A stretch of DNA of 64,000 nucleotides, taken from Escherichia phage vB_EcoM_CRJP21. This document shows, one piece after another, positions 1,411-24,937 of this stretch (position 1 is its first letter; every line of letters begins with the position of its first letter). The position numbers and the translations under genes are program-made. Where the stretch lies: the sequence record OQ708376.1; one strand, 5' to 3'. The notes below the pieces were generated by a model that had not been told where the DNA came from, did no database searches, and saw only the letters and a program-made list of their open reading frames with translations.

Positions 1411-4107
1411 ATGTCAAAGAAAATATATGGTGGCTTAGATGTCACACATAATGTGACAGTTAATGGTAAAAGAACAATTCAAGGAATAAATGAACAAGTT
1501 TTTGATTCCAACGGTAACTTGGAATTAGATACTTATTCCAGAGATGAAGTACTAGATATAGTAAGTATGATGCCAATCTCCCATTATGGTTCACAAAACT
1601 ATCTACCTGCGGGTGTATCTGGGGATTTCAATGGTGCATCAGAAAACCAGTCACAACGTAGAAATAAAATTTTATTAGAAAACGATGGTACACTAGTACT
1701 TTTACGTAGTGGGACAAACGGTAGTGTTGAGGGATTATTTTATTCATATTTGGCTAACGCATTATCAGTTGATGACATGAGCCGTACAATTAACACTAGT
1801 CGTCAATACAAGCCTGGGTTTTTTGGTTCAAATAGAGTTGCGATTGGTTTATACAATACTGATCCAAATATTTTACTCGGTAGATATATTGATACTTCTA
1901 ACAGTACTAATGGTTTGTTCATATCAATTACCAATGGTACATTAGATGATAAATTGCATACTGGTTTTTTCGTTAACCAAGCAGATATATCACCTGAAGG
2001 TGGTATTGAATATGCTATGATGGCAGAAGATGGTTCTATATATGTTTTTAACGTACTTAATGAAAATAACCAACTACAATTAGTTGTTGTTAAAGTTGTT
2101 TATAATATAAGCAATGGTACTTATACTGCAACTCGAATTACTGGATGGACTACAAAAACATTCTATAATACAACTTATTCTGCACAGAATAACATGGTTA
2201 TTACTAATCAAGTAACTTCAACTAATATAGCAGATAAGCCTTATGTGTATGTACCACAAAACCTACGTGGTATTGGGATTTATATGACATCCATTGATTT
2301 GTATGTTGCACAGCAACCAGGAACACAGAACTTTCGTTTTAGAATGAATGGTGATGCATGGTTTACAATGGCGACATATAATGTCCGACCACAACATAGC
2401 TACAGCTTTGCATTTAATATGAGTACTAAACAATGCACCCTAGACGCTGGGAATGACATAGGTTCATATCAAGCACCATTGGTTATAACCAATACTGGCT
2501 CTGCATTAGTGCCTACAGGTAACGTTTTAAATAATGATCCATTATATAATCATGCTGGTGCAAGAAACATTTATAGTTCATATTTTTATTTGAATTCTGG
2601 TGAAGCTTTTTGTACTGCATGTCCAAACTTAGCAGAACCATTACTTATGCAAAAAGCTAAGTTTCCTATTCAAATAGTTTATAGTATGCTGAATGTCCGT
2701 GCTGTACTTTCTACTGACTTCAAAGGTGGTATAGTTCGCCCGTCTTTTGGTTCAGCGGTTGGTTCATTTATTAATGGTGTAGAATTACTACCAGATAACA
2801 GTACTAAACAATATTCACGTGCATCAGGTAGTGGTGGATTTAGACCATCATATGCAGTTCATAAAAGTACTCCTAATTTTACATTTAAATCATTATCTTT
2901 AGGAACAATACAAGGTTATGAACCTACAGTTGAACGTGCTAATGTTGATGATAATGCAAATAATAGAATTTTTATTAGTAGTATTTCTGGGTCAACTGTC
3001 ACAACCAATGGTGGTATTTTTATGGTTGGGCAACGTTATTCACAATCATTATCCTATGATAAAAACTTAAATGGCACAGGAATTATAAGCGTTACACAAT
3101 CAGTACTGGACAATTTTAGAAATACTGAATATGCCAAAGTTCTAAGTGATTGGAATTTATCAGCACAAGCATACCGTGATATGACACTATTTGTTCCACA
3201 ACAAACAGACATTCCAGCTTTTGTTATGTTGAGTACAATTACTAATGATTATAGAAACTATATTAGAATTGCTGAAGTTAATGTCAATACTAGAGTTGGT
3301 AATATTACATCTATTACATTTAAGCGTTTAGTACTTGAGAATACGTATGGTGATAACTTTACACCAACTGGGAATGGTTCGATTGCATCTTCTTCTGTTG
3401 GTTTGACAATATATGATGGTGGTTCATTCTACTTCATTGGTGGTTCTGACCCATTATCACATCCAACAATAGGTAATACTGCAACTCATCAATTTAGAGC
3501 ATATGTAACTAAATCAACTGCACAATTTACAAGTTTTATAATTACTGGTTCTCATGCCAGTTATGAACAAGGAAGTCAACCAGCAGCGTTACCTGGTATT
3601 GGTTTTGGAATTTTTGAACCAATGGATTACTCAAATAAAATGACATTCAAAAAATATGGAACAACGATTGCAGACTATAATAACTGGACTGCACAAGGTA
3701 GCCCAATTAACGTAGTATCCCAGGACGTTGCTCAAGGGTTTATTGTATATTTTACAGAGGAAACACCAGTTATTCTTTCAGGTAAGTCATTTTCACTACC
3801 AGTTTCAAATATTGATTTGAGAACTATTAAGTCTAATCCAGCAAATACAACATTTTATGTATATGTTAAATTGGAACAAGGATTGGCAAACTATTACATA
3901 ACTACTGATGTTATTTCTGAAACAGGAACAACTGCATATAATATTTTTTGGATAGGTACAATTCAAACTAATGCAATTCAAATCGAAACAATTAATATAC
4001 AAAAACGTTCCCGTTTAGATATATTTGGTGCTTCACTTGAATCAGCAGGTTCATCGTTCCCAGTTAGCTACGGTCTACCATCACAAACAGGAACCATAAA
4101 CTGGTAA
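1411..4107 (+). CDS. large paralog A (898 aa), probable virion or fibre-like protein
   Basis: shares N-terminal module (LRSGTNGS) and C-terminal module ending GSSFPVSYGLPSQTGTINW with the next two ORFs; late-promoter-like element upstream. Confidence 0.6.
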   Translation: MSKKIYGGLDVTHNVTVNGKRTIQGINEQVFDSNGNLELDTYSRDEVLDIVSMMPISHYGSQNYLPAGVSGDFNGASENQSQRRNKILLENDGTLVLLRSGTNGSVEGLFYSYLANALSVDDMSRTINTSRQYKPGFFGSNRVAIGLYNTDPNILLGRYIDTSNSTNGLFISITNGTLDDKLHTGFFVNQADISPEGGIEYAMMAEDGSIYVFNVLNENNQLQLVVVKVVYNISNGTYTATRITGWTTKTFYNTTYSAQNNMVITNQVTSTNIADKPYVYVPQNLRGIGIYMTSIDLYVAQQPGTQNFRFRMNGDAWFTMATYNVRPQHSYSFAFNMSTKQCTLDAGNDIGSYQAPLVITNTGSALVPTGNVLNNDPLYNHAGARNIYSSYFYLNSGEAFCTACPNLAEPLLMQKAKFPIQIVYSMLNVRAVLSTDFKGGIVRPSFGSAVGSFINGVELLPDNSTKQYSRASGSGGFRPSYAVHKSTPNFTFKSLSLGTIQGYEPTVERANVDDNANNRIFISSISGSTVTTNGGIFMVGQRYSQSLSYDKNLNGTGIISVTQSVLDNFRNTEYAKVLSDWNLSAQAYRDMTLFVPQQTDIPAFVMLSTITNDYRNYIRIAEVNVNTRVGNITSITFKRLVLENTYGDNFTPTGNGSIASSSVGLTIYDGGSFYFIGGSDPLSHPTIGNTATHQFRAYVTKSTAQFTSFIITGSHASYEQGSQPAALPGIGFGIFEPMDYSNKMTFKKYGTTIADYNNWTAQGSPINVVSQDVAQGFIVYFTEETPVILSGKSFSLPVSNIDLRTIKSNPANTTFYVYVKLEQGLANYYITTDVISETGTTAYNIFWIGTIQTNAIQIETINIQKRSRLDIFGASLESAGSSFPVSYGLPSQTGTINW

Positions 4108-4118
4108 AGGATTACATA

Positions 4119-4706
4119 ATGGCATATAAAATAAGAGCAGACCTTAAGGCAATGCAACAAGTTACAGTTCAGGGTAAAAGTACTGGTCTTGGTGTATTAG
4201 GTAATAATATGACTTATTACCCAACAAATTCAAATGGGGAATGTACATTCCCCTCTATTACCAAAGATGAAGTTAACTTTATTGTCAATGGATTACCACT
4301 TACACAATACGGAGAATTGTATGATGACGCTAGTCTAAATATTACTTCATCAGGCTATAGTCTTACATTTAATAGACAGATACCATCATTTATTGGTGGT
4401 TATCTTTATAAATTTCCAGCAGTTTCTATTTTTGCTTCAACTGTTTCATCTGGAACACAAACACAATACGTATATGCAACGTTAGTTCTCGGTGAACCAA
4501 TTTATAAAATATCACCAACACAAATACAAGAATCTGAAATTATAATGTTTATTGGAACACTGACCGTTGGTACAAGTGGTATTACAAATATAAACATTAA
4601 TAAAGTATCCAGATTTAGTACATATAGACCTAGTGTTACACAAAAAGGTTCTTCATTCCCAGTCAGTACTGGAAAACCATCAGAAACTGGTACAATTGGT
4701 TGGTAA
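4119..4706 (+). CDS. short paralog B (195 aa) of the same family
   Basis: N-terminal and C-terminal modules of the family without the central region; ends GSSFPVSTGKPSETGTIGW. Confidence 0.55.
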   Translation: MAYKIRADLKAMQQVTVQGKSTGLGVLGNNMTYYPTNSNGECTFPSITKDEVNFIVNGLPLTQYGELYDDASLNITSSGYSLTFNRQIPSFIGGYLYKFPAVSIFASTVSSGTQTQYVYATLVLGEPIYKISPTQIQESEIIMFIGTLTVGTSGITNININKVSRFSTYRPSVTQKGSSFPVSTGKPSETGTIGW

Positions 4707-4722
4707 ATTAAGGAAAAGAAAG

Positions 4723-7452
4723 ATGTCATCAAAACGAATTATAGGAAGTGCCGAGATCCTTGGGAACTTGGCAATTGGACAAAGGTACGCTATGCGTACT
4801 TTTAATGGAACCTCACCGAATGCCAATACTGGAATTGTTCAATATCCAATATATAAGCGTTCAGAAGTTCAAAGTATTTTAGATATGTTGCCTATATCAC
4901 GTGTAGGAGAAATGGATTACTTGCCATTAAACGTAAGTGGGTCGTATGAAGGTGCTACACCTATGTCAAGTGACCAAGTAGTTCAGCCAACAATTATTGA
5001 AGATGATGGAACCGCCGTTGTTCTGCGTAGCGGAACCAATGGTAGTACTAAAGGTTTTTATTATTCATTTATACGAGAACTCCGAAATATAACTATGATT
5101 TCACAAGAAAGTGTTATTTCCACCAATTCAATGTATAAACCTTCAATTATGAGTAGTACTGAAAATATTAAGTATTTTATTGGCTCTAATGGTTATGAGA
5201 TGCTTGGATGTTTAAGTACAGAAGATAATTATATTTTCACTTTAACAAATGGTACATTCAACGAAATTTCACATATTCACGCTAAAGTTCCAAGTACATC
5301 ATTTGGAAATGATATGCCATTATACGTTCATATTGTAGGTTCTAAAGTATATATTTGGTGTAAAGATAAAAGTGTTTCTAATTTAGGATTAGCACTTTCA
5401 ATTTATACAGTAGAGCTAAGTGATGTGAAAGCAAGCTCAATGGCATCATTAACAAAAGTTACTGGATTATCAGGGCAAACTGTTCGAAATACAAGTTATT
5501 CTGCATCTAATAACATAAGAGTGTTTGATAGATTATATAGTGTTGGTACTAGCTCGGATTCATTATTCGAAGTTACATCACCAGTCTCACGTGTAGAATT
5601 TTCGGATTATACAGACTTTAATATACAAGCAAACGTTAGTACTGATTTATCCAAAATACGTGTAACTTTATACCCAACACATAGAATGGTTACACCTTTA
5701 TATATTTCAACAGTGTATGGTACTGGTATCAGTTTTGTTTATAATATAAACTCAAAATCTATGTCACTAGATGGTTCTGCTCGTGCTCCTGCGACAGTTT
5801 CATATAATAATGGCTTCCAAGTTACAAACCCATTTGAAATAGATATGGTAAACTTTACTGGAACAACAGCTACCGGAGTTTTAGGTAATGCTGGTGGGTT
5901 ATGTCAAACAAAAGATGGTCTTGTATTTGCATCTAAATTCAGATGGAGTTCTACTGAATTTTATGGTTTACAAAGATATAAAGTTAATGGTACACCATTT
6001 GATTCATGGGTAGCCAGTACTAGATCCGCAAGTAACGTTATAAATACAAACGTTTTACCAGTTTTTGGTAGTGCTGTTGGTGCAAACCTATTAGGTGTAC
6101 GTTTCATCGATAATAGAAAAATATTATTAGCATGTTCTGGTACGTATGATGATGTAACATATAATTATAATAATACTGTTTTTTCTGAAATAGGCCCACA
6201 ACCAACATATCAATATAACTCAGTTCAACATAATACTACATTAAATGGTTTTGCACCACAATCTAATCGTAAACAAATAGGTGATGATTTTACATACACT
6301 GCTATGATTTCTCTTGTTGATACCGATGGTAGTGTTAGATGTTATGGAACATCATTCATTGAAGGTGTATATAAAACAAGTGGTGGATTATTAAACCCAG
6401 ATACTTTAGAATTTGATGAAACATATACAATAGAACCAACGGTATTAGAATCATTAAAACAAGATATTTTTGCTAATCTAGGAAACTCTGGCATTGTTGG
6501 TACACTATCTGGACAAATTGTATTATATTATGTACCTGATAATACTTTTTCTAAATCCATTGCAGTAGTTTCAGCATATAATCTTAACAATAACCAAGGT
6601 TATGCAATTTATGCCGAAGTTGATGTTGTATTATCTGGATCTAACATAACTTCAGCTACATTGGTAAGTACTAGATATGAGACACTTAGTTCTGTTACAG
6701 GAATTATTACTGAAGCATATATGAAACGTTGTACTGGTCTAACAGTTGCTAAATATTCAGGATTTGGTTATATTGGTGTTGATGCAGTTCATCAATTTTC
6801 ACAACCAGGTAATGCACAATTTAAGATGATGATAGCTAAAACAGTAAATGGTGTCATAACATCAAATCGTTTTTTATCATCTAGTTACATCCAACTCGGT
6901 GCAGCATATCAACATGGTGTTATTCCTGGTGTTGGTTTTGGATATTACAATTTTCAAGATTCTGACTATCAAACCAAATCTGTATTCAGCGTTTTTGGTA
7001 CAACATCTGCTGAAATGGATGGTTTAATTAGCGGAAATGGTAGCGTTAAAGAAAAGATTGTGGTAGTATCACAAGACGTTGCACAAGGATTCTCAGTGTA
7101 CTTTACACGTGAAGTTCCGGTATTTTTAGGTGGAATTTTCGACAGACTACCTATACAAAGTGTAGATTTAAGTACTGTAAAAAATAATCCAGCTAATACT
7201 ACGTTCTATTTGTATATACAAATGAACAGGAATACTAAGAAAGCTTCATATGTTATTAGTACTGAAACTATTGATGAATCTTTAACTAGCACTTACATTG
7301 GTAAGATAGTTACTGGAACTTCAGGAATTACTTCGATTGATACTGAAAAAGTGACTCGTTTTTTGACATATCGCCCAAGTACAACGAAACGTGGTTCAGC
7401 GATACCTGCCAGTACTGGTGTACCGTCTGGGTCAGGCACACGTTGGAAATAA
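4723..7452 (+). CDS. large paralog C (909 aa) of the same family
   Basis: ATG at 4723 after aaggaaaag RBS (track ORF begins 4633); shared N- and C-terminal modules, ends GSAIPASTGVPSGSGTRWK. Confidence 0.6.
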   Translation: MSSKRIIGSAEILGNLAIGQRYAMRTFNGTSPNANTGIVQYPIYKRSEVQSILDMLPISRVGEMDYLPLNVSGSYEGATPMSSDQVVQPTIIEDDGTAVVLRSGTNGSTKGFYYSFIRELRNITMISQESVISTNSMYKPSIMSSTENIKYFIGSNGYEMLGCLSTEDNYIFTLTNGTFNEISHIHAKVPSTSFGNDMPLYVHIVGSKVYIWCKDKSVSNLGLALSIYTVELSDVKASSMASLTKVTGLSGQTVRNTSYSASNNIRVFDRLYSVGTSSDSLFEVTSPVSRVEFSDYTDFNIQANVSTDLSKIRVTLYPTHRMVTPLYISTVYGTGISFVYNINSKSMSLDGSARAPATVSYNNGFQVTNPFEIDMVNFTGTTATGVLGNAGGLCQTKDGLVFASKFRWSSTEFYGLQRYKVNGTPFDSWVASTRSASNVINTNVLPVFGSAVGANLLGVRFIDNRKILLACSGTYDDVTYNYNNTVFSEIGPQPTYQYNSVQHNTTLNGFAPQSNRKQIGDDFTYTAMISLVDTDGSVRCYGTSFIEGVYKTSGGLLNPDTLEFDETYTIEPTVLESLKQDIFANLGNSGIVGTLSGQIVLYYVPDNTFSKSIAVVSAYNLNNNQGYAIYAEVDVVLSGSNITSATLVSTRYETLSSVTGIITEAYMKRCTGLTVAKYSGFGYIGVDAVHQFSQPGNAQFKMMIAKTVNGVITSNRFLSSSYIQLGAAYQHGVIPGVGFGYYNFQDSDYQTKSVFSVFGTTSAEMDGLISGNGSVKEKIVVVSQDVAQGFSVYFTREVPVFLGGIFDRLPIQSVDLSTVKNNPANTTFYLYIQMNRNTKKASYVISTETIDESLTSTYIGKIVTGTSGITSIDTEKVTRFLTYRPSTTKRGSAIPASTGVPSGSGTRWK

Positions 7453-7459
7453 TTTTAAA

Positions 7460-7486
7460 GCTCGTCTATTGACGGGCTTTTCTTTT
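7460..7486 (+). terminator. intrinsic terminator
   Basis: gctcgtc-tatt-gacgggc hairpin (one G-U pair) plus ttttctttt. Confidence 0.6.
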
Positions 7487-7497
7487 ATGTGTATAAT
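7469..7497 (+). promoter_or_regulatory. sigma70-type early promoter
   Basis: TTGACG, 17-nt spacer, TATAAT; overlaps the terminator hairpin. Confidence 0.65.
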
Positions 7498-7519
7498 TGA
7501 ATAAAAATAGGAGGAAATT

Positions 7520-8086
7520 ATGGTTAAATCTTTGCTACCACCACCAAAACGTCATAAAATCAAAGAAATGAAAGAACAACGTACATTAAAGATGTACAAC
7601 AATTTAGTTCAGTTACTGTGTAAAAGTCCATCGCTCAAAGCAGAGTTTAAAACTGATGATGACCGCAAAGCACTAATTGAGATGAAGTATATGCTCAGTA
7701 AAATGTCCTTTTACAAATTTGTAAAAGAATACACAACTGACCCATTTAGTCCTCGTTGGAGATCCAAACCAAGAGAGTATTTTTACGGTGGTTCATATAC
7801 GGATCGCATTCAAGACACAGTGATGGGAGTTGAATTTGAAATCGATTATGAGCCGAATGGTGTGGAAAGCTGGCCGATTGAGAAACGTTTACCAAGTGAA
7901 GAAGAAATTTATGTTTATGCAAGAAAACTTTCAAATTTCAGTTCAAGAATTACTCTAGGCAATTTAGATTCATTTATTATTTTCTATACACGTGTTGGTG
8001 TAGATAAAATGGTAACTAAACTCAATGAACTTTCATTACAACAAAAACAGATTAATGCATACAAAGACATTACTGATTTATACTAA
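7520..8086 (+). CDS. hypothetical protein, tandem paralog 1 of 3
   Basis: AGGAGG RBS; shares D-D-R-K-x-L-I-E-x-K-Y-x-L-S-K block with the next two ORFs. Confidence 0.6.
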   Translation: MVKSLLPPPKRHKIKEMKEQRTLKMYNNLVQLLCKSPSLKAEFKTDDDRKALIEMKYMLSKMSFYKFVKEYTTDPFSPRWRSKPREYFYGGSYTDRIQDTVMGVEFEIDYEPNGVESWPIEKRLPSEEEIYVYARKLSNFSSRITLGNLDSFIIFYTRVGVDKMVTKLNELSLQQKQINAYKDITDLY

Positions 8087-8098
8087 TGAGGAATGGAT

Positions 8099-8614
8099 AT
8101 GTTTTTTGGATCAGTTGGAAAACAAAACAGTACTTTAATTTGGCATGAAATTATCTTTAAAATTATATCTAAAAGCTACTCACTAAAGGATATTATTACC
8201 ACAGATAATGATAGACGTATCCTGTTAGATGCAAAATATAAATTGAGCAAACACCCTTTACTTTCTTTAATCATTGATTACGTTTGTGATTATGAATCTA
8301 GTCGTTGGAAGTGGGAAGACGGCGGTTTATTTCGTGGAAAAACATTCTACGGTGCGGAACGATATGTTTTCAGTGATACATCAAATGGCGTTAAGTTTGT
8401 TATTAGAAACTTTAACTCCAAAGAAAATGATTATCTTGAAAGTGGAGTGAAAGTATATATCGATAATAATAGCAATGTACTAACATATGACGAATCACTA
8501 ATTATGTTACAAATAATGCGTGGTGTTGAAGGTGTAAGAAACAACCTTACTAAATTGAAAATCCAGCAAAATGATATACATAATAGACAGAAAATTAAGG
8601 GTTTATATAAATGA
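8099..8614 (+). CDS. hypothetical protein, tandem paralog 2 of 3
   Basis: ATG 6 nt after GAGGA; shared motif NDRRILLDAKYKLSK. Confidence 0.6.
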   Translation: MFFGSVGKQNSTLIWHEIIFKIISKSYSLKDIITTDNDRRILLDAKYKLSKHPLLSLIIDYVCDYESSRWKWEDGGLFRGKTFYGAERYVFSDTSNGVKFVIRNFNSKENDYLESGVKVYIDNNSNVLTYDESLIMLQIMRGVEGVRNNLTKLKIQQNDIHNRQKIKGLYK

Positions 8615-9120
8615 TTTCATTTTTCAAAAAGAAACAAAAAGTTGATGAAACCGGATTAGAATCGTTTCTATGGACTCTTATCATCAAAAAAAGTCCATTG
8701 ATAAAAGAATATGCTATCAATGATGCTAATAGAAAAACTATCATTGAATACAAATATGAATTATCTAAATGTGATCCAATTGTTTATCACTTTGCGAAGT
8801 ACTGTTCAAAAAATTTATCGGATATCACAATCTACCACGAGTCAGTCCCAATGAGTTTTCCTTATGGTGATTGGGTAGATACTTTTGATATTTTTGATGG
8901 GTCAAATGGTTTCAGTTTCTTTTACTCGTCAAATAAAGCAAGTGTTCGTATTAAAACAGACATAGGTTGGACAAAGCATAGCTCAAATAAAGAAGATTAT
9001 AATTTATTAGCTGACGTATACCGAAGTGTGAAGAATTCAAAGGATATTGATGAAAGAATTAAAAAGCAAAATCGTATATCTTTATCACTTGAAACATACA
9101 AGTCAAAGTATGGTGGTTAA
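8611..9120 (+). CDS. hypothetical protein, tandem paralog 3 of 3
   Basis: ATGA overlap with upstream stop; shared motif NRKTIIEYKYELSK. Confidence 0.6.
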   Translation: MISFFKKKQKVDETGLESFLWTLIIKKSPLIKEYAINDANRKTIIEYKYELSKCDPIVYHFAKYCSKNLSDITIYHESVPMSFPYGDWVDTFDIFDGSNGFSFFYSSNKASVRIKTDIGWTKHSSNKEDYNLLADVYRSVKNSKDIDERIKKQNRISLSLETYKSKYGG

Positions 9121-9122
9121 CT

Positions 9123-9524
9123 ATGACTACAGTTGATGATATCTATAGCACTATACGCAATATGAGTACAGATAGAAAAGTATTTGGCGATAAAGAAAAA
9201 TCTAAGTGTTATGGTATTGATTCTTTTGATATAATTTCTTATGAGTACAATACAAGTGGAAATAGTTCACTGAATATCGTCTGTCCTCGTGATCCAGAAA
9301 ATAATTTTATGTATGTTGAAATTAATAATGATGGAATGTTTTTTACAAAAGTTTTAAAAGGTGGAATTAATTACGAACCTATTGAATGTATGAATGAAGA
9401 AACTTTCTTTCAAGAAGATACAATTATCAATTTAGGTTTTAGTTTTGATGATTATAAAACATTAGAACATGACTTTAATCGTTATTATAATGGTTTCTTA
9501 AAGGAGTTAACAATTTATCTATGA
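9123..9524 (+). CDS. hypothetical protein
   Basis: 133-aa ORF tightly packed between neighbours. Confidence 0.5.
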   Translation: MTTVDDIYSTIRNMSTDRKVFGDKEKSKCYGIDSFDIISYEYNTSGNSSLNIVCPRDPENNFMYVEINNDGMFFTKVLKGGINYEPIECMNEETFFQEDTIINLGFSFDDYKTLEHDFNRYYNGFLKELTIYL

Positions 9525-10753
9525 ATAACCAATATATTGAACAAACAATAGTGAAACACTTGGCTGGGTCACAAGCCTACGGAACCAGTACACCTGAAAG
9601 TGATACTGATTATCGTGGTATTTTTCTTGCTAATAAAGAATTTATTCTTACACCCTTCTATAAGGTCAAAGAGGTAGCTGATAAAAGCGAAGAAGATACT
9701 AAATTCTATGAGTTGAATCAGTATTTAAAATTATACACTGAAGCTAACCCTAATATTCTTGAATCACTTTGGGTTGAACCTGAACACATTGTTGAAAGTA
9801 CTGAAATTTATGACTATCTTCGTTCATTTAACCAAAAACTTCTTAGTTCCAAGATTGCATTTTCATACACTGGATATGCATATAATCAGATTAAGCGTAT
9901 GACAAATCATCACGGTTGGATGGATAAAGAGCGTATTGCTGAAAAACGATTAAATGAGATTTTAGAAGAACACCCAGTCGATGAGGTTCTTGCGTGGATG
10001 TATGATTCATTTCCACAATATCTTGTTGAACGTTTAGATACATCGAACTTACATCCATTTAATGCTAAAAAGATTGATTTTGAAAAATATATGCGTGATA
10101 CGTCATTGCAGTTAGTTTCGAAAAATCCATTAAAGCAATATCATTTTGTAAGATTAGTGCATAACTACACTACTGATAAAATTCTAGATCGTGATTTCAA
10201 TTTATTGAATTTTAATAATGGCTATGAACTAATTCATTACGGAGAAAACATTTTTGCGATTATTAAAAATCCGAATGAAAGTACTATCAATGGTGATGGT
10301 TCATTGCGTTATTTTTCTAAAGAGCGTAGTACTGAAGAGTTGAAAACCAAACCAGAACTGATTGTCAAATTTAACGAAAAAGAATATCAGGAAAATAGTG
10401 AGAATAGGAAAAGTTATCATAAATGGAAAGAAAATCGTAATGCCAAACGTGCTATTTTAGAATCACAGCACGGATACGATTGTAAACATGCTATGCACAC
10501 AATCCGACTTTTGAATAGTGCAGAAGAAGCATTACAAAGTGGTATTATTCAAGTTAAACGTCCTGATGCACAAATGCTGATGGATATTCGCAATGGTAAG
10601 TGGAAATATGAAGAAGTATTAGAATACTTTGATGATAAAGTAAAATATATTCGTGATGTTCTATATAAGAAATCTGTACTTCCTAAAAAACCAAACATCA
10701 AATTAGCATCAAAAATTATCATTGATATTAGAGAAATGCAATGGTATAAGTAA
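9521..10753 (+). CDS. Pol-beta-superfamily nucleotidyltransferase (predicted)
   Basis: N-terminal hG[GS]-x(9-13)-[DE]h[DE]h signature LAGSQAYGTSTPESDTDYRGIF; ATGA start overlap. Confidence 0.5.
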   Translation: MNNQYIEQTIVKHLAGSQAYGTSTPESDTDYRGIFLANKEFILTPFYKVKEVADKSEEDTKFYELNQYLKLYTEANPNILESLWVEPEHIVESTEIYDYLRSFNQKLLSSKIAFSYTGYAYNQIKRMTNHHGWMDKERIAEKRLNEILEEHPVDEVLAWMYDSFPQYLVERLDTSNLHPFNAKKIDFEKYMRDTSLQLVSKNPLKQYHFVRLVHNYTTDKILDRDFNLLNFNNGYELIHYGENIFAIIKNPNESTINGDGSLRYFSKERSTEELKTKPELIVKFNEKEYQENSENRKSYHKWKENRNAKRAILESQHGYDCKHAMHTIRLLNSAEEALQSGIIQVKRPDAQMLMDIRNGKWKYEEVLEYFDDKVKYIRDVLYKKSVLPKKPNIKLASKIIIDIREMQWYK

Positions 10754-10921
10754 CATATACAAGTGTAATGGTACTAAAAATGCCATTACACTCAATAAAT
10801 ACTCAATATAAATTAACACAAGGATTAAGTATGGCACAACAAATTTTCACAGATATCCACACTACCGGAGTTATTAAATTTCAAAATAATTTTTCTGGTG
10901 CTACTGGTGTAGACATTAAAA

Positions 10922-11458
10922 ATGATGGTTTTAACATTGTCAGTACTCGGATCTATTGATGGTGAAGATAGTTCTCTTAGTGATTCTGTGATTGCATCAT
11001 TCGGAACTAATAAAAACAGTTCTTTTATTATATCTGGATGGACTGGAATGACTGATTCTGAAAATAATGTTAAGATAAAAGCTAAAGCTACTAACGAGAA
11101 TCATGAAACAGAATGGGTAACATTATATGATAGTGCAAGTAATAAGTTATATAATGTATTAAGTTCTAATAATATTTTAATTAATCCACTGTCGGGCAAT
11201 GCTGTTTTTAATATTAATTTATCTGATAGAAATACTACTATTTCGATTGGTGCGGCTCCTACTGAAGTTTATTCAATTACCATCCTATTAACACAACAAA
11301 CAGGTTCAAACCTAGTTAATTGGGGTTCTAATGTTAAATGGTCATATAACAGACCAGTTGTTCTTTCTTATGAAATTGGTGAAAAAGATATTATTTCATT
11401 AGAAACATATGATAAAGGAGTTACATGGTACGGTGCATTAATTAGAGCAGGAGTATGA
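10922..11458 (+). CDS. hypothetical protein, start uncertain (possible frameshifted continuation of 10831-10959)
   Basis: 178-aa ORF overlapping a 42-aa ORF in another frame. Confidence 0.35.
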   Translation: MMVLTLSVLGSIDGEDSSLSDSVIASFGTNKNSSFIISGWTGMTDSENNVKIKAKATNENHETEWVTLYDSASNKLYNVLSSNNILINPLSGNAVFNINLSDRNTTISIGAAPTEVYSITILLTQQTGSNLVNWGSNVKWSYNRPVVLSYEIGEKDIISLETYDKGVTWYGALIRAGV

Positions 11459-11459
11459 T

Positions 11460-14249
11460 ATGTTAAACAATAATATTGATAATATTGTACAACTTCTTTA
11501 TGGGCATCACAAATTTATTGAAAGAAATACTGGTGATACAATAGACCCAACAGTACAACATTATGTGGTGAATAATCAGGGTGTTTTGGCGAACAACCGT
11601 CATTTTATTAACTATTCTGCAATGGAAGGTCAACCAAACGGTGACGGGACAACAGAAGGTCAAAGTCTATTAATTTTGGGATACATTTATGCGTATCTGG
11701 CAACAAATGATCCAATGTTTTTAGATAAAGCCAAATGGTACTGGGATGCATATCATCAGTACTTTTATGCTGGACGTGAATTACCAGACCCACCAACTCC
11801 ACTTCAATGTAACTGGATAGTTAATGCCAAAGAACCGATTTTGGCTAACTGGCCTTTAGCTGATGATGGATGGCCTACACATGGTGGTTTCAAGGGTGTA
11901 GAATTTACATTTACAAATGGACAATGTAAAATACCACATGGTGCACCTTATTATGGTCAGTTCTTGGATAAAGTAACATTCGCATTCAAAGGTGCTTTAG
12001 CATGGAACCAAATAAATGCGTCAGTAAAAGCATTACTACCAGATGGTAGTGTTGATTGGGATACCCCTGGTGATCAATATGATGTTGACTGGATTATTGA
12101 TTTCATGGGTAGAAAAATCGACTGGGATGGTAATATTTTAGCAGAAGGTTTTGACGAATCTGAAAAAGGAACGGTTCAATTAAAAAATACAACAATTAAT
12201 GGTGTATATAAATTAAATTTTGCTAATCGTCAACCAGTAGAATATGGTGGTGTGATAATTCAACGAAATGAAATGCAACACAACCGACCACTTCATGTTC
12301 CAATTGATTTGGAATTTGCGGATAATGCATCAGATGCAGAATTGTGGTTTAGTGATGCTTCTTATTTGTTATATAAAATAACAAAAGAAAGAAAACATTA
12401 TTTGGGTTGGAAATGTTCATTACTCACATGCTATGCTTATGGTGATATCGACTCCAGAGATAAATTTTTCAGACAAAGTACAATTGTAACCACACCATTC
12501 ACTGATGGTATTTCCTATGAATATTTTTATCCAAGTGATGCTATCGCTAAGTTTGGTAGAAATTCTTTAGGATATATTACTATCAGGCAAGACCAAAGTG
12601 CACAAAGTACAATGGAACAACAAGCTATTTGGTTCAGGGTCAATGCTGATTCTAAATTACTTGTAGATTATGGTGGTGTATGTGATGATGGTAAGCCGTT
12701 ATCATTTAAACCAGTACTGGAATTGTCTAAAACAAAAAATGATCATGATGTAGTAAGATATCGTTGTGGATTACCAGAAAGTAAAGACCAAAATATCACA
12801 CATTCATTAACACCTTTAAGTGCATTTGTTAGAGAAAAGAAAGCAGATGGTTCCCCTTATATAATTGCTGATAGTAGAATAGTTGTTCCTTATGGTGCAG
12901 CTACGTCCGAAATGATATATAGTACTGATATATTAGTTACACGCCGAGATACCATTAATCAGTTAGTTTGTGGTGAAGATGATGGTGCTGTTATTGGATT
13001 TTGGCTATTAGCAACAAATAAGTCTGAAGTTAAATCTTTTACATATCGTTCATATGAAGATGATTACAATATAAGAATTGTAGATGATAATGGTTGGAGA
13101 TGGTGGTGGATGATTCCTGCAACACACGGGGAATGGACTACAATCACACTAAGTTCCGATACATTACGTTTATCTGGGTATCAGCCAAATCATCCAAGTT
13201 CTGACCCAAGACCAGATGCACCAGTATATAGTGAGCTAGAAGATATTACTATTTTACCTGATACAACCCCAGTAGATGGTGTTGCTGCAATAATTGATTG
13301 GTATTGTATTAATGACATTCCAGAATTATATACGGATGCTGACGGTGATGACTATACTATGACATTTTCAATAACAATTGCAGGTGAATCACCATATACT
13401 GCACAGTTAGGGGATTGTGTAATCAAAGATTATTTGTTAAACTCATTGCATTACACACCAGGAACAATACCATTTTCTAACATCACTGACCCGTATGCGA
13501 ACCAGTACTCAGGTTGGCGTGGTTTACCGTATCCAGGTTATCAATATCCAGTGATATATTGTTTTAAAGACCAGCCAGTAGATAACACACGCTTAGGAAA
13601 CATGTTAAGCTTTATGAAAGATTCCCAAACATGGTTTACTCAACAATTCGGTACTGTTGGTCCGTGTGCACAAGCATATGTTTGGAACCGCTGGGATAAC
13701 TTAAAATATGGTGAACCAGATACATTTACTATGCTACATTGGGGTGATCAAGCATGGAGTGGGTATGAACCACGTGCGTTCTTTGGGGCTGCCAGAGCAT
13801 GGCAAGAACTCGCAGAGAGAGGAATTGAACCACCAGCAGATCTTGTTGAATTTTGTGAGAATTGGATTCACTTTTTAATTCAATTTCAAAAAGATAATGA
13901 TGGTCGTTCACCAACAATCTTCAATAAAGATGGCACAGTTGAAGGTCCAGATTGGGACTTTACAGGTCATATGTGTGGGTTGTGGTTAGCTGGGGCTTGT
14001 GCTGCTGGATTGGCTGGATGTAAAATAGAAGGTCTAACAACACTCGCTGATAACTTAGTTCTCGAACTTCAAAAGAATTATGTTATTGTAAATCCAGGTT
14101 CCCCAATGAATGGTTCATGGAGTCCAGCAGTTAGAGAAGGTACTGATAATGGTATGTTTTTTGGTTTCTGGGCAGGTGAGATTATGCGTGGATTGGGGTT
14201 ATACTCAATGTACCGTTTAAACACACCAAATCGTTTCCGTGATTTATAA
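11460..14249 (+). CDS. large hypothetical protein (929 aa)
   Basis: long uninterrupted ORF, Trp/Tyr-rich (WYWDAY, WRWWWM); no motif I can assign. Confidence 0.6.
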   Translation: MLNNNIDNIVQLLYGHHKFIERNTGDTIDPTVQHYVVNNQGVLANNRHFINYSAMEGQPNGDGTTEGQSLLILGYIYAYLATNDPMFLDKAKWYWDAYHQYFYAGRELPDPPTPLQCNWIVNAKEPILANWPLADDGWPTHGGFKGVEFTFTNGQCKIPHGAPYYGQFLDKVTFAFKGALAWNQINASVKALLPDGSVDWDTPGDQYDVDWIIDFMGRKIDWDGNILAEGFDESEKGTVQLKNTTINGVYKLNFANRQPVEYGGVIIQRNEMQHNRPLHVPIDLEFADNASDAELWFSDASYLLYKITKERKHYLGWKCSLLTCYAYGDIDSRDKFFRQSTIVTTPFTDGISYEYFYPSDAIAKFGRNSLGYITIRQDQSAQSTMEQQAIWFRVNADSKLLVDYGGVCDDGKPLSFKPVLELSKTKNDHDVVRYRCGLPESKDQNITHSLTPLSAFVREKKADGSPYIIADSRIVVPYGAATSEMIYSTDILVTRRDTINQLVCGEDDGAVIGFWLLATNKSEVKSFTYRSYEDDYNIRIVDDNGWRWWWMIPATHGEWTTITLSSDTLRLSGYQPNHPSSDPRPDAPVYSELEDITILPDTTPVDGVAAIIDWYCINDIPELYTDADGDDYTMTFSITIAGESPYTAQLGDCVIKDYLLNSLHYTPGTIPFSNITDPYANQYSGWRGLPYPGYQYPVIYCFKDQPVDNTRLGNMLSFMKDSQTWFTQQFGTVGPCAQAYVWNRWDNLKYGEPDTFTMLHWGDQAWSGYEPRAFFGAARAWQELAERGIEPPADLVEFCENWIHFLIQFQKDNDGRSPTIFNKDGTVEGPDWDFTGHMCGLWLAGACAAGLAGCKIEGLTTLADNLVLELQKNYVIVNPGSPMNGSWSPAVREGTDNGMFFGFWAGEIMRGLGLYSMYRLNTPNRFRDL

Positions 14250-14250
14250 C

Positions 14251-14279
14251 TTGACATAGAAAAAGTAATTATGTATAAT
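14251..14279 (+). promoter_or_regulatory. sigma70-type early promoter
   Basis: TTGACA, 17-nt spacer, TATAAT. Confidence 0.7.
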
Positions 14280-14280
14280 T

Positions 14281-14311
14281 AGAGAACTTCATATGGAGTT
14301 CTCTTTTTTTA
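14281..14311 (+). terminator. intrinsic terminator hairpin immediately downstream of the promoter
   Basis: agagaact-8 nt loop-agttctct plus 7 T. Confidence 0.6.
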
Positions 14312-14323
14312 TAAGGTGATAAA

Positions 14324-14743
14324 ATGTTAAATGAACGTATTAAAAATGCACTACATGTATTGAATCAAGAAGTCAATTCTATTCATAAAAGTACTGACCG
14401 TTATAAAGTAATGCATGAAATCAAACAAGAATTGGAATCTATTAATAAGGGAGAGTGGTGGTATCTTCAGCCCGAATATCAAACTCGTGAATTAAACGAT
14501 GTTGAAAAAGAAATTGTCAAATTCATCACTACTCGTTATTGTGATACATCAGAGAATGATGTATCAGCGAACTTCAATCTTACTAAATTGGAAGTCGAAG
14601 AAAAATTCCATTTTGATTGGCTTGATTGGATTGAAATGGTAATGGAACTAGAAGAAAAATTCAATGTTGAAGTTGATGAAAAGTTCGAGAATAATGAAAC
14701 TAAGCTGTATGAACTAGTAGAACATATTCAAAAAATGTTGTAA
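14324..14743 (+). CDS. ACP-like protein lacking the phosphopantetheine-attachment serine
   Basis: C-terminal DWLDWIEMVMELEEKFNVEVDEKF resembles ACP helix II [16 protein letters not shown] with Trp in place of Ser. Confidence 0.4.
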   Translation: MLNERIKNALHVLNQEVNSIHKSTDRYKVMHEIKQELESINKGEWWYLQPEYQTRELNDVEKEIVKFITTRYCDTSENDVSANFNLTKLEVEEKFHFDWLDWIEMVMELEEKFNVEVDEKFENNETKLYELVEHIQKML

Positions 14744-14796
14744 AACTATACAATTGTATACTCTAAATAATATCATCAACTATAGGAGATATTATT

Positions 14797-15171
14797 ATGA
14801 GTATGTTAGAAATAATTGTTTCAAAAATTCTTATTCCATTTTGGAAACCAATTTCTTTTGTATTATTAATTGGCGGTTCAGCTTATGCTGGTTGGGAAGC
14901 TAATACTTATTACAGTGGATATCAACAAAGCATAGAGCAACAAATAGCTAAAAAAGTTGATACCGCCTTGGATAAAATGCAACAAGAAAATGCAAAAAAT
15001 TACCTTGAAACTAAAAAAATCATGGAAGATAATGCTAAAGTTATTGAAACAAAGGTTCCTTTTATTGTAGAACGTGAAGTTTATAAGAATGTATGTTTAG
15101 ATGAAGATGGTGTAAAAGTACTGAATGAACTAAAACAAAATTCTCAAGCTGCGAGGAATAAATTCAAATGA
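14797..15171 (+). CDS. i-spanin candidate (inner-membrane spanin)
   Basis: N-terminal TM segment then charged helical region; ATGA-coupled to a downstream lipoprotein ORF. Confidence 0.5.
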   Translation: MSMLEIIVSKILIPFWKPISFVLLIGGSAYAGWEANTYYSGYQQSIEQQIAKKVDTALDKMQQENAKNYLETKKIMEDNAKVIETKVPFIVEREVYKNVCLDEDGVKVLNELKQNSQAARNKFK

Positions 15172-24604: not shown

Positions 24605-24937
24605 ATGCTAAAATTAAATATTCAAGGTAATGTTGATTTTACTACAGCAATTCAAGATGCAATTTACGATGGTGCTAAATGTCTTGAAAAGTTCCGTACT
24701 TCAACTGTAATGGATATTGAAGTTCATGTGAAGAAAGAGCATAAGTCTCAATACTCTGTGACTATAACATCAGGTAGTAAATCAGTTACTGCCGATGCAG
24801 CAGATTTATACAAAGCAATTGGTGATTCATTTGAAAAAATGGAAACTGTATTCAGTAAAGACAAAAGCATTAAATTACACCGCCGAAACCATCCAGAACA
24901 CCCAGTTCTTAATGATTTGACAGAAAACGAAGAGTAA
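24605..24937 (+). CDS. hpf: ribosome hibernation promoting factor (HPF/RaiA family)
   Basis: MLKLNIQGNVDFTTAIQDAI ... ADLYKAIGDSFEKME ... KDKSIK aligns with E. coli HPF along its length. Confidence 0.65.
   Translation: MLKLNIQGNVDFTTAIQDAIYDGAKCLEKFRTSTVMDIEVHVKKEHKSQYSVTITSGSKSVTADAADLYKAIGDSFEKMETVFSKDKSIKLHRRNHPEHPVLNDLTENEE

Follow-up and report, generated by a model that had tools for sequence, protein, structure and literature searches.

The DNA analysed here, referred to below as the window, is a 64,000-nt stretch of the genome of Escherichia phage vB_EcoM_CRJP21 (OQ708376.1). Downstream of a near-consensus sigma-70 promoter it carries five ORFs on the same (+) strand, of 188, 173, 169, 133, and 410 aa, over which no rival ORF of >62 aa was found when both strands were checked. 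The features of the locus, the last two of them read from the sequence, are:

7457..7480, + strand: terminator-like hairpin (10-bp stem with 5 G-C pairs, T-rich tail), ending the upstream 939-aa gene
7469..7497, + strand: sigma-70-type promoter TTGACG-17 nt-TATAAT (11/12 matches), heading the operon
7520..8086, + strand: paralog 1 (ORF1), 188 aa, pI 9.2, PHROG 18641/7868, equivalent to phAPEC6 gp321c
8093..8614, + strand: paralog 2 (ORF2), 173 aa, pI 9.2, PHROG 18641/7868
8611..9120, + strand: paralog 3 (ORF3), 169 aa, pI 9.0, PHROG 7868, its start overlapping the stop of paralog 2
9123..9524, + strand: ORF4, 133 aa, acidic (pI 4.4), PHROG 22376
9521..10753, + strand: nucleotidyltransferase (NTase), 410 aa, RlaP family (PF10127), PHROG 388, Pol-beta type, homolog of T4/T2 NrdC.11
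10763–10791, + strand: AT-rich hairpin, the downstream boundary
10807–10814, + strand: T4-late-promoter-like TATAAATT, followed by a tail-fibre cassette

The region gives a 98.1% match over 3401 nt to positions 237940–241340 of Escherichia phage 121Q (Asteriusvirus), in which the five ORFs are genes 502–506 and gene 506 carries the GenBank label nucleotidyltransferase. The architecture, which a preliminary description of this DNA did not recognise, is therefore on record: this is an ordinary locus, already catalogued, with the enzyme annotated in GenBank and the paralogs binned in PHROGs. Purifying selection acts on all five genes, as judged from dN/dS. The region is best explained as the 5' portion of a unit transcribed by the host RNA polymerase (sigma-70) in an Asteriusvirus (121Q-like) jumbo coliphage, and the unit is probably read early. 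Nothing notable emerged from an Rfam scan of positions 6500–15000 or from a repeat search of 7300–11000. Two products of the tail-fibre cassette downstream, gp315c and gp314c, belong to the phAPEC6 virion, and the entire cassette is missing from vB_Ec-M-J.

The -35 hexamer of the operon promoter sits in the loop of the hairpin at 7457–7480, which the annotation of phage G17 lists as a terminator. This terminator/promoter composite is kept in vB_Ec-M-J, JNE01, and CBB, and TTGAC[AG] plus a -10 element is found before the first paralog in five lineages, out to CBB. Promoter-like sites overall show no excess (55 found versus 63.5 expected from shuffles); the site at 7469–7497 is intergenic, and with its 11 of 12 matches and its conservation upstream of the first paralog the consensus promoter originally proposed at 7469 holds up. 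ORF1 is preceded by AGGAGG, a strong ribosome-binding site. The suggestion that all genes are translationally coupled applies to ORF2/ORF3 and ORF4/NTase, which share ATGA overlaps, but not to the other two junctions, where gaps of 6 and 2 nt are each accompanied by a separate Shine-Dalgarno-like sequence.

By sequence comparison, ORF1–ORF3 are true paralogs, beyond chance. ORF1 and ORF2 align over 183 residues in BLASTP (E = 4e-13), while ORF3 resembles the other two weakly by BLAST (E = 0.003–0.02). PHROG profiles match across the set (ORF1 to phrog_7868 at 1e-6, ORF2 to phrog_7868 at 3e-11, ORF3 to phrog_18641 at 6e-5), in addition to home-family matches with E values of 3e-56 to 5e-85, and phrog_7868 was matched by all 91 of the 91 family members tested. 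The core block described earlier for the three ORFs is present from its second position, [DN]-R-[KR]-x-[IL]-[IL]-[ED]-x-K-Y-x-L-S-K, with the leading D confined to ORF1; likewise, the lengths of 188 and 169 aa stand, but ORF2 is 173 aa long instead of 172 (171 aa with the ATG at 8099 as start codon, as in its GenBank relatives). Compared with vB_Ec-M-J, dN/dS of the paralogs is 0.15–0.28.

The family occurs only in the 121Q/RaK2/GAP32/CBB clade of jumbo phages, at 2–4 copies per genome. An exhaustive HMMER search returned only 89 representatives, 88 of them stand-alone proteins of 108–237 aa (most 150–230 aa); the weakest, P0229, was judged a false positive. Membership of PHROG 7868 or 18641 adds no functional information. 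Pfam, NCBIfam, and PADLOC assigned the paralogs to no family (the best PADLOC match, of ORF1 to DUF2290 at E = 0.014, is not significant), and a Pfam scan of the 91 family members at E ≤ 1 produced scattered single matches only. Nor are they T4-type proteins of known function, a possibility raised at the outset; the paralog HMM found no match in the T2 nrdC region. A PDB search with the paralog profile gave nothing significant, the best match being the P-Rex1 PH domain (E = 0.02). The AF2 model of ORF2 (pLDDT 74.6, pTM 0.67) starts with four helices, continues with a five-strand beta meander, and ends in a long helix (132–171); a Foldseek search of BFVD with this model retrieved solely uncharacterised proteins from related jumbo phages, and an enzyme-like fold is not predicted for the paralogs. 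In phAPEC6, gp316c and gp318c–321c are not in the virion mass spectrometry (MS) list, while the flanking gp314c, gp315c, and gp323c are; in CBB, gene products 150, 153, 155, 156, and 159 are not MS-positive. From this negative evidence we infer that the paralogs are non-enzymatic binding proteins, which would work independently of the NTase. Their target may be a nucleic acid or a host protein, with a role in early host takeover or anti-defence.

The 410-aa protein, the only recognisable enzyme of the region, is by its profile matches a phage-type RlaP nucleotidyltransferase. It matches Pfam PF10127 at E = 6.4e-16 (59.2 bits, cut-off 23), over residues 13–131 only, and phrog_388 "nucleotidyltransferase" at E = 2e-76 over residues 4–409; among the matches listed, 119 of 120 homologs have PF10127 precomputed, and the family counts 638 phage records. 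Both the Pol-beta signature and the RlaP/PF10127 affiliation, which the preliminary description had listed as one of several options, are thus confirmed, the latter above the Pfam cut-off. The acidic triad is intact: the motif reads G16-S17 ... D28-T29-D30 plus D59, and across 51 homologs G16, S17, D30, and D59 are invariant, with D28 at least 90% conserved. dN/dS versus vB_Ec-M-J is 0.04.

The gathering score and the GS...DxD...D catalytic centre place the NTase with RlaP, and the AF2 model (pLDDT 91.9) predicts, from N- to C-terminus, the NTase domain, a helical insertion, a small beta domain, and a helical domain (286–409). As modelled, this layout appears to agree with that published for PfRlaP, whose crystal structure has an N-terminal NTase and a C-terminal helical domain with a cleft. 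The phage NTase differs from RlaP in size (~410 aa versus a Pfam model of 249 positions), in carrying an extra beta domain (~205–285) and a helical insertion of ~50 aa specific to the jumbo clade (~137–190), and in not standing next to an RNA ligase. The protein is also homologous along its length to T4/T2 NrdC.11 (tblastn, BLASTP); with T2 NrdC.11, which has 336 aa and is devoid of the jumbo-clade insertion, BLASTP gave E = 1.7e-11 plus two more collinear segments at ~28% identity. A block with nrdD/nrdG and a homolog of rI.-1 (DUF5856) is common to both settings, but T-even phages have neither PHROG 7868 paralogs nor ORF4 near NrdC.11.

Two other types of Pol-beta enzyme had been considered for this protein. 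A CD-NTase making a nucleotide signal finds no support in the PADLOC search, which gave no hit at E ≤ 1, in the Foldseek matches to CdnC/CdnE at E 1.1–1.9 with a probability of ~0.04, or in the neighbours of the NTase, among which there is no effector domain or Cap gene of the kind expected of CBASS partners. An MNT-type function is likewise unsupported: MNT-HEPN systems pair a minimal NTase of ~100–150 aa with HEPN, whereas here a 410-aa protein has extra domains, no HEPN neighbour, and similarity in the core fold only (E = 0.075). CD-NTases, MNT, HalB, and kanamycin NTase have the Pol-beta core fold in common with our protein and are unlike it in size and C-terminal domains. The closest solved folds found by Foldseek are generic minimal NTases, the best PDB matches being kanamycin NTase 1kny (E = 0.02), HalB, and MNT with TM-scores of 0.15–0.3, and a PDB sequence search, with the single sequence or a 15-sequence profile, found no match. 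The enzyme is, as far as its family membership indicates, better regarded as an enzyme of RNA 3'-end repair or counter-defence than as a signalling NTase.

Bacterial RlaP adds one or two NMPs to the 3'-OH of RNA, not of DNA or protein, and so extends RNA 3' ends ahead of ligation, an addition activity known for PfRlaP and PaRlaP (PMC12776372). The enzyme favours cleaved-tRNA mimics and Mn2+ and rescues aminoacylation of tRNA missing one anticodon-loop nucleotide; T4 NrdC.11 was assigned to PF10127 in the same study (PMC12776372). The RlaP proteins so characterised are bacterial cluster-1a proteins, which the phage NTase resembles via the Pfam profile over residues 13–131. Because the NTase belongs to RlaP/PF10127, RNA modification is the supported branch among the activities suggested for it in the preliminary description, and would be its probable function. 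We infer the RNA substrate, as we do the timing of expression and the functions of the paralogs and ORF4. The likeliest substrates would be tRNA anticodon loops robbed of a nucleotide by a host ribotoxin, e.g. RloC, and resealing by the phage RNA ligase could then yield a functional tRNA. The NTase may then be a counter-defence or RNA-maintenance enzyme acting beside the phage CCA-adding enzyme and tRNAs. A CCA-adding-type NTase (26537–27649) and a NUDIX protein are both encoded in the 64-kb window, in which no tRNA genes were found. Annotation of the region corresponding to the window lists neither an RNA ligase nor a polynucleotide kinase. Related genomes carry RNA ligase genes at other sites; CBB encodes two, and its RlaP shares an operon with Thg1. 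An RNA ligase and eight tRNAs were reported for an Asteriusvirus relative (PMC12805682), and jumbo-phage RlaP was reported to track RNA ligases (PMC7824862). Adjacency to an RNA ligase is typical of the RlaP family, not obligatory. As a discovery the enzyme carries little weight, the RlaP family being already covered in reviews and a 2025 biochemical preprint, but the phage-type variant, distinguished by an added beta domain and the insertion, is a candidate for countering anticodon nucleases that excise the wobble nucleotide, RloC among them.

The NTase could instead have DNA ends as its substrate or serve DNA replication and recombination. Its genomic company lends this some plausibility: a UvsX/RecA-like gene is the upstream neighbour in 51 of 80 loci, with gp32-like and UvsW-like genes nearby in 46 and 44, respectively, a large group of T4-like metagenomic phages has the NTase amid UvsX, gp32, and UvsW, a setting that fits a DNA-related role just as well, and the nrdD/nrdG linkage recurs. 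We nevertheless consider a DNA substrate very unlikely, since DNA 3' ends are not a substrate of bacterial RlaP (PMC12776372) and, in CBB-type and Ro1 genomes, Thg1 and a CCA-adding enzyme are among the neighbours of the NTase; the genome paper that files the NTase under DNA repair does so by annotation only (PMC11895373).

Whether the paralogs and the NTase belong together was examined starting from the NTase, in 80 IMG/VR loci. Paralogs were absent from 67 of these and present in 13, all of the jumbo clade; borderline matches to the paralog HMM in two non-jumbo loci (L061 and L069, E = 0.001–0.005) were judged not significant. No paralogs occur near the NTase in T2, Ro1, Vibrio phage 2.275.O, or a second jumbo lineage (L093). 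In CBB/GAP32-type genomes Thg1, DUF4326, and methyltransferase genes stand between the paralog copies and the NTase, and in CBB-type genomes the copies are interleaved with them. Within Asteriusvirus, dS is 0.15–0.35 in the paralog block, >1.5 in the 939-aa gene, ~3 in the NTase, and saturated in ORF4; the recombination history of the paralog block differs from that of ORF4 and the NTase. The adjacency is best explained by gene order inherited within one jumbo-phage clade and not by a recurring functional module. Taken together, we lean towards an RlaP-type RNA-repair NTase with independent paralogs that stand beside it through such inherited gene order.

A single functional module of all five genes, in which the paralogs would serve the NTase as alternative subunits (specificity, adaptor, or inhibitor), appears distinctly improbable. 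Compact spacing on one strand with two ATGA overlaps would suit such a module, as would a paralog pI of ~9, compatible with RNA binding, and the ~50-aa insertion of the jumbo-clade NTase, which could serve as a docking site. Two to four paralogs lie ≤5 kb upstream of RlaP in 13/13 jumbo-clade IMG/VR loci and two metagenomic contigs, but these genomes form one clade related by vertical descent, with synteny across the entire block, so that the co-occurrence is not independent evidence. The specificity or inhibitor subunits envisaged in the preliminary description are further disfavoured by an NTase family that does without paralogs in most loci, in T4/T2, and in Vequintavirinae, by a copy number varying from 2 to 4, and by the second jumbo lineage, whose RlaP has the insertion yet no paralogs. 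Unrelated genes part the paralogs from the NTase in CBB-type genomes, synonymous divergence is discordant between the two, and the NTase is abutted by ORF4 or a different small gene but in no case by a paralog. In every paralog-bearing genome the paralogs do share the strand of the NTase and precede it by ≤5 kb, and a clade-specific partnership may therefore exist. A variant to which we give hardly any credence would have the paralogs act as XRCC4/PAXX-like dimeric scaffolds or tRNA-species-specific adaptors, bringing RlaP, Thg1, the CCA-adding enzyme, and RNA ligase to damaged tRNAs, one substrate per paralog, with the RlaP insertion as docking site. The "head plus coiled-coil stalk" scaffolds of XRCC4/XLF/PAXX/SAS-6 were set beside the paralogs in this connection; the hallmark of the XRCC4/PAXX superfamily is a seven-stranded beta-sandwich head with an inserted helix-turn-helix and a dimeric coiled-coil stalk. 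If true, the result would be a phage "RNA end-joining" complex.

It is also conceivable, if rather unlikely, that the paralogs are diversifying early inhibitors for anti-defence or host takeover, each directed at a different host protein (e.g. anticodon nuclease variants or immune sensors), with ORF4 as an acidic decoy (pI 4.4). The sigma-70 promoter predicts transcription by the unmodified host polymerase, the proteins are not found in the virion and have no predicted enzyme-like fold, and tandem copies in variable number diverge fast, with 30–38% aa identity to JNE01 compared to 75% for the NTase. However, no known anti-defence family was matched (PADLOC gave nothing significant, Pfam and BFVD uncharacterised proteins only), and an average dN/dS of 0.15–0.5 indicates purifying selection and no arms-race signature. 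Such a set of inhibitors overlaps with the paralog half of our preferred explanation. With either reading, the PHROG 7868 family is a clade-specific protein set, probably expressed early, that may repay experiments.

ORF4 is unrelated to the paralogs (hhalign probability versus the paralog family 0.4%). Pfam, NCBIfam, and PADLOC assigned it to no family, its profile found nothing in PDB, and comparison with the genes that immediately precede the NTase in T2, Ro1, the Vibrio phage, and CBB gave nothing significant (best CBB gp158, E = 0.07). Its relatives form only 9 sequence clusters in 5.8 billion proteins, and it immediately precedes the NTase in 121Q/RaK2-type loci only. Versus JNE01 its dN/dS is 0.19, while the pair with vB_Ec-M-J is saturated at synonymous sites.

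The interval 7520-10753 holds five ORFs on one strand, and no competing ORF longer than 62 aa was found on either of its strands. The arrangement is as follows:

7457-7480, terminator-like hairpin, upstream of ORF1 and overlapping the promoter
7469-7497, promoter TTGACG-17 nt-TATAAT, 11/12 matches
7520-8086 (+), ORF1, 188 aa, first paralog
8093-8614 (+), ORF2, 173 aa, second paralog
8611-9120 (+), ORF3, 169 aa, third paralog
9123-9524 (+), ORF4, 133 aa
9521-10753 (+), Pol-beta nucleotidyltransferase (NTase), 410 aa
10807-10814, late-promoter-like TATAAATT, preceding the tail-fibre cassette
10831-14249, tail-fibre cassette: 42-aa ORF (phAPEC6 gp315c), 178-aa gene and 929-aa gene (gp314c)

The ORF2/ORF3 and ORF4/NTase junctions are ATGA overlaps; at the remaining two the genes stand 6 and 2 nt apart, with Shine-Dalgarno-like sequences. 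The preliminary description of this locus as five same-strand ORFs, with true paralogs and a Pol-beta NTase signature, was confirmed. The locus is already catalogued: it is 98.1% identical to 237940-241340 of Escherichia phage 121Q (genes 502-506) and 92.9-98% identical to the region in ~20 further Asteriusvirus jumbo phages (310-385 kb), in several of which the last gene is annotated as 'nucleotidyltransferase'.

The NTase matches PF10127 (RlaP; E = 6.4e-16, 59 bits against a Pfam cut-off of 23) in an alignment confined to residues 13-131, and PHROG 388 'nucleotidyltransferase' over its full length (E = 2e-76). It has at least 844 homologs, with PF10127 present in 119 of the 120 listed, and tblastn recovers members from 638 phage records, T4 and T2 among them (gene nrdC.11; the alignment to T2 NrdC.11 consists of three collinear segments, best E = 1.7e-11). 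Across 51 sequences G16, S17, D30 and D59 never vary, and conservation of D28 is at least 90%. The preliminary description was right on the NTase fold. The AF2 model (pLDDT 91.9) runs from an N-terminal NTase domain through a helical insertion and a small beta domain (residues about 205-285) to a C-terminal helical domain; the insertion (~50 aa, residues about 137-190) occurs in jumbo-phage RlaP and is missing from the 340-360-aa phage variants.

The enzyme had been proposed either to make a nucleotide signal or to modify an RNA or protein. A signalling role is unsupported, as CD-NTases were matched by Foldseek only at E > 1 and PADLOC returned no match for the NTase. The best Foldseek matches in the PDB were kanamycin NTase (E = 0.02), HalB and MNT, a generic minimal-NTase resemblance, and no RlaP structure was among the PDB copies searched. 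RNA modification, by contrast, agrees with the PF10127 match and with the family's only biochemistry, a 2025 preprint describing two RlaP enzymes of Pseudomonas that act on RNA (PMC12776372). These add 1 or 2 NMPs to RNA 3'-OH ends, do not use DNA or protein as substrates, prefer a cleaved-tRNA mimic and Mn2+, and partly restore aminoacylation of a tRNA lacking one anticodon-loop nucleotide; the authors assign T4 NrdC.11 to the same Pfam family (PMC12776372). A review of jumbo phages names RlaP as their most prevalent repair NTase, with a distribution that tracks RNA ligases (PMC7824862). By homology, the NTase is probably an RNA 3'-end repair or counter-defence enzyme, a reading favoured because a CCA-adding-type NTase and a NUDIX hydrolase are encoded in the window, an Asteriusvirus relative is reported to encode an RNA ligase and 8 tRNAs (PMC12805682), and CBB has two RNA ligases and carries RlaP and Thg1 within one operon. 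The CCA-adding-type NTase and the NUDIX hydrolase, together with a third ORF, make up RNA- and translation-related cargo 14-17 kb 3' of RlaP:

24605-24937, ribosome hibernation factor-like protein (S30AE)
26537-27649, CCA-adding/poly(A)-polymerase-type class II NTase
27758-28159, NUDIX hydrolase

The three paralogs are real: ORF1 matches ORF2 at E = 4e-13, and ORF3 is tied in by PHROG cross-hits and the family HMM. They are basic (pI 9.0-9.2; family median 8.9) and have no match in Pfam, NCBIfam or PADLOC. HMMER, run exhaustively over 1.84 billion representatives, gave 89 matches. Of these, 88 are stand-alone proteins 108-237 aa long (150-230 aa in most cases); the weakest match, a 488-aa protein with Ig-like repeats (P0229), was rejected as a false positive. 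PHROG 7868, a group without an assigned function, takes in all 91 family members tested. In the ORF2 model (AF2, pLDDT 74.6, pTM 0.67) four helices at the N-terminus are followed by a beta meander of five strands and, at the C-terminus, a helix of 40 residues; its matches in BFVD are all uncharacterised and come from RaK2-like or other large phages. Mass spectrometry of phAPEC6 detected gp314c, gp315c and gp323c around the block, gp315c being found in virions, and did not detect gp316c and gp318c-321c; the CBB orthologs were likewise not MS-positive. On these data the paralogs and NTase are not virion components.

The paralogs had also been suggested to serve the NTase as alternative specificity or inhibitor subunits. 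When 80 NTase loci from IMG/VR were scanned with the paralog-family HMM, paralogs appeared in 13, solely those with an NTase sharing at least 55% identity with that of the window. All 13 belong to the 121Q/RaK2/GAP32/CBB clade (phages of 345-380 kb) and have 2-4 copies, always <5 kb upstream of the NTase. The other 67 gave no paralogs, two borderline matches among them being judged not significant. The NTase is likewise present and the paralogs absent in T2, Raoultella phage Ro1 and Vibrio phage 2.275.O, and in a second jumbo lineage (L093) an insertion-bearing RlaP adjoins nrdD/nrdG with no paralogs. In CBB-type genomes Thg1, DUF4326 and an N4-methyltransferase lie in between the paralog copies, and the gene abutting the NTase is another small gene. 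Within Asteriusvirus, divergence from vB_Ec-M-J is mosaic: the paralog block (7490-9100) retains 87-97% nucleotide identity (dS 0.15-0.35), against 60-86%, mostly 65-82%, in the flanks (3100-7480 and 9290-10690). The 939-aa gene, ORF4 and the NTase all fall at 65-82%; dS reaches about 1.5 in the first and about 3 in the NTase, and synonymous sites in ORF4 are saturated. The paralog block and NTase therefore differ in recombination history, and the mosaic implies that the block was recently exchanged or that the flanks were replaced. Purifying selection acts on all genes (dN/dS 0.04-0.5). Given the clade restriction, interleaving and differing divergence, we conclude that the paralog-NTase association is clade-restricted synteny; it is compatible with a clade-specific partnership and lends no independent support to one. 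The subunit model is unsupported.

ORF4 is acidic (pI 4.4; PHROG 22376), unrelated to the paralogs and represented by only 9 sequence clusters in the search; it lies directly 5' of the NTase solely in 121Q/RaK2-type genomes. In JNE01 (L004 7342-7791) and RCIP0023 (L002 5541-6005) ORF4 is parted from the NTase by a further gene of 149-154 aa, which has 45% identity between these phages and is missing from the window; local BLAST found nothing relating it to neighbouring genes.

On the 5' side the locus is bordered by nrdD, a DUF4326 gene, nrdG and three large genes (898, 195 and 939 aa), and on the 3' side by the tail-fibre cassette, an acyl-carrier-protein gene, spanins and an rI.-1/DUF5856 homolog. 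The cassette is carried by the window, 121Q, G17 and JNE01; in the vB_Ec-M-J clade, which lacks it, the acyl-carrier-protein gene directly follows the NTase. It resembles a variable receptor-binding insertion placed behind the late-promoter-like TATAAATT. One metagenomic relative reads nrdD-nrdG-[paralogs, Thg1, DUF4326]-RlaP without intervening structural genes, L093 reads nrdD-nrdG-x-RlaP, and in T-even phages nrdC.11 is followed by rI.-1. Jointly, these three arrangements suggest that non-structural genes for nucleotide and RNA metabolism form a block of old standing, which in 121Q-like phages appears to have received insertions of late structural and tail-fibre modules. Such insertion would account for both the terminator/promoter composite at 7457-7497 and TATAAATT at 10807-10814. 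Linkage of RlaP genes to the anaerobic ribonucleotide reductase genes nrdD/nrdG and to DUF4326 recurs in three jumbo-phage lineages (1-1334 in the window, and loci L091-L093) and recalls the T4 nrdC.11 region; in L092 a 421-aa HD + AAA_33 gene, whose product could be an RNA end-healing kinase/phosphatase, lies between nrdD and nrdG.

Counted together, promoter-like sites show no excess over shuffled sequence (55 observed, 63.5 expected). The 7469-7497 promoter is intergenic and is kept 5' of the first paralog in G17, phAPEC6, vB_Ec-M-J, JNE01, RCIP0023 and CBB, the -35 hexamer of CBB also falling within the hairpin loop. The composite element, a terminator hairpin with -35 TTGAC[AG] in its loop followed by a T-run and the -10 hexamer, stands 5' of the first paralog in CBB and JNE01 as well, recurring across distantly related jumbo phages. 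A second consensus promoter (14251-14279, 12/12 matches) adjoins a terminator at 14281-14304.
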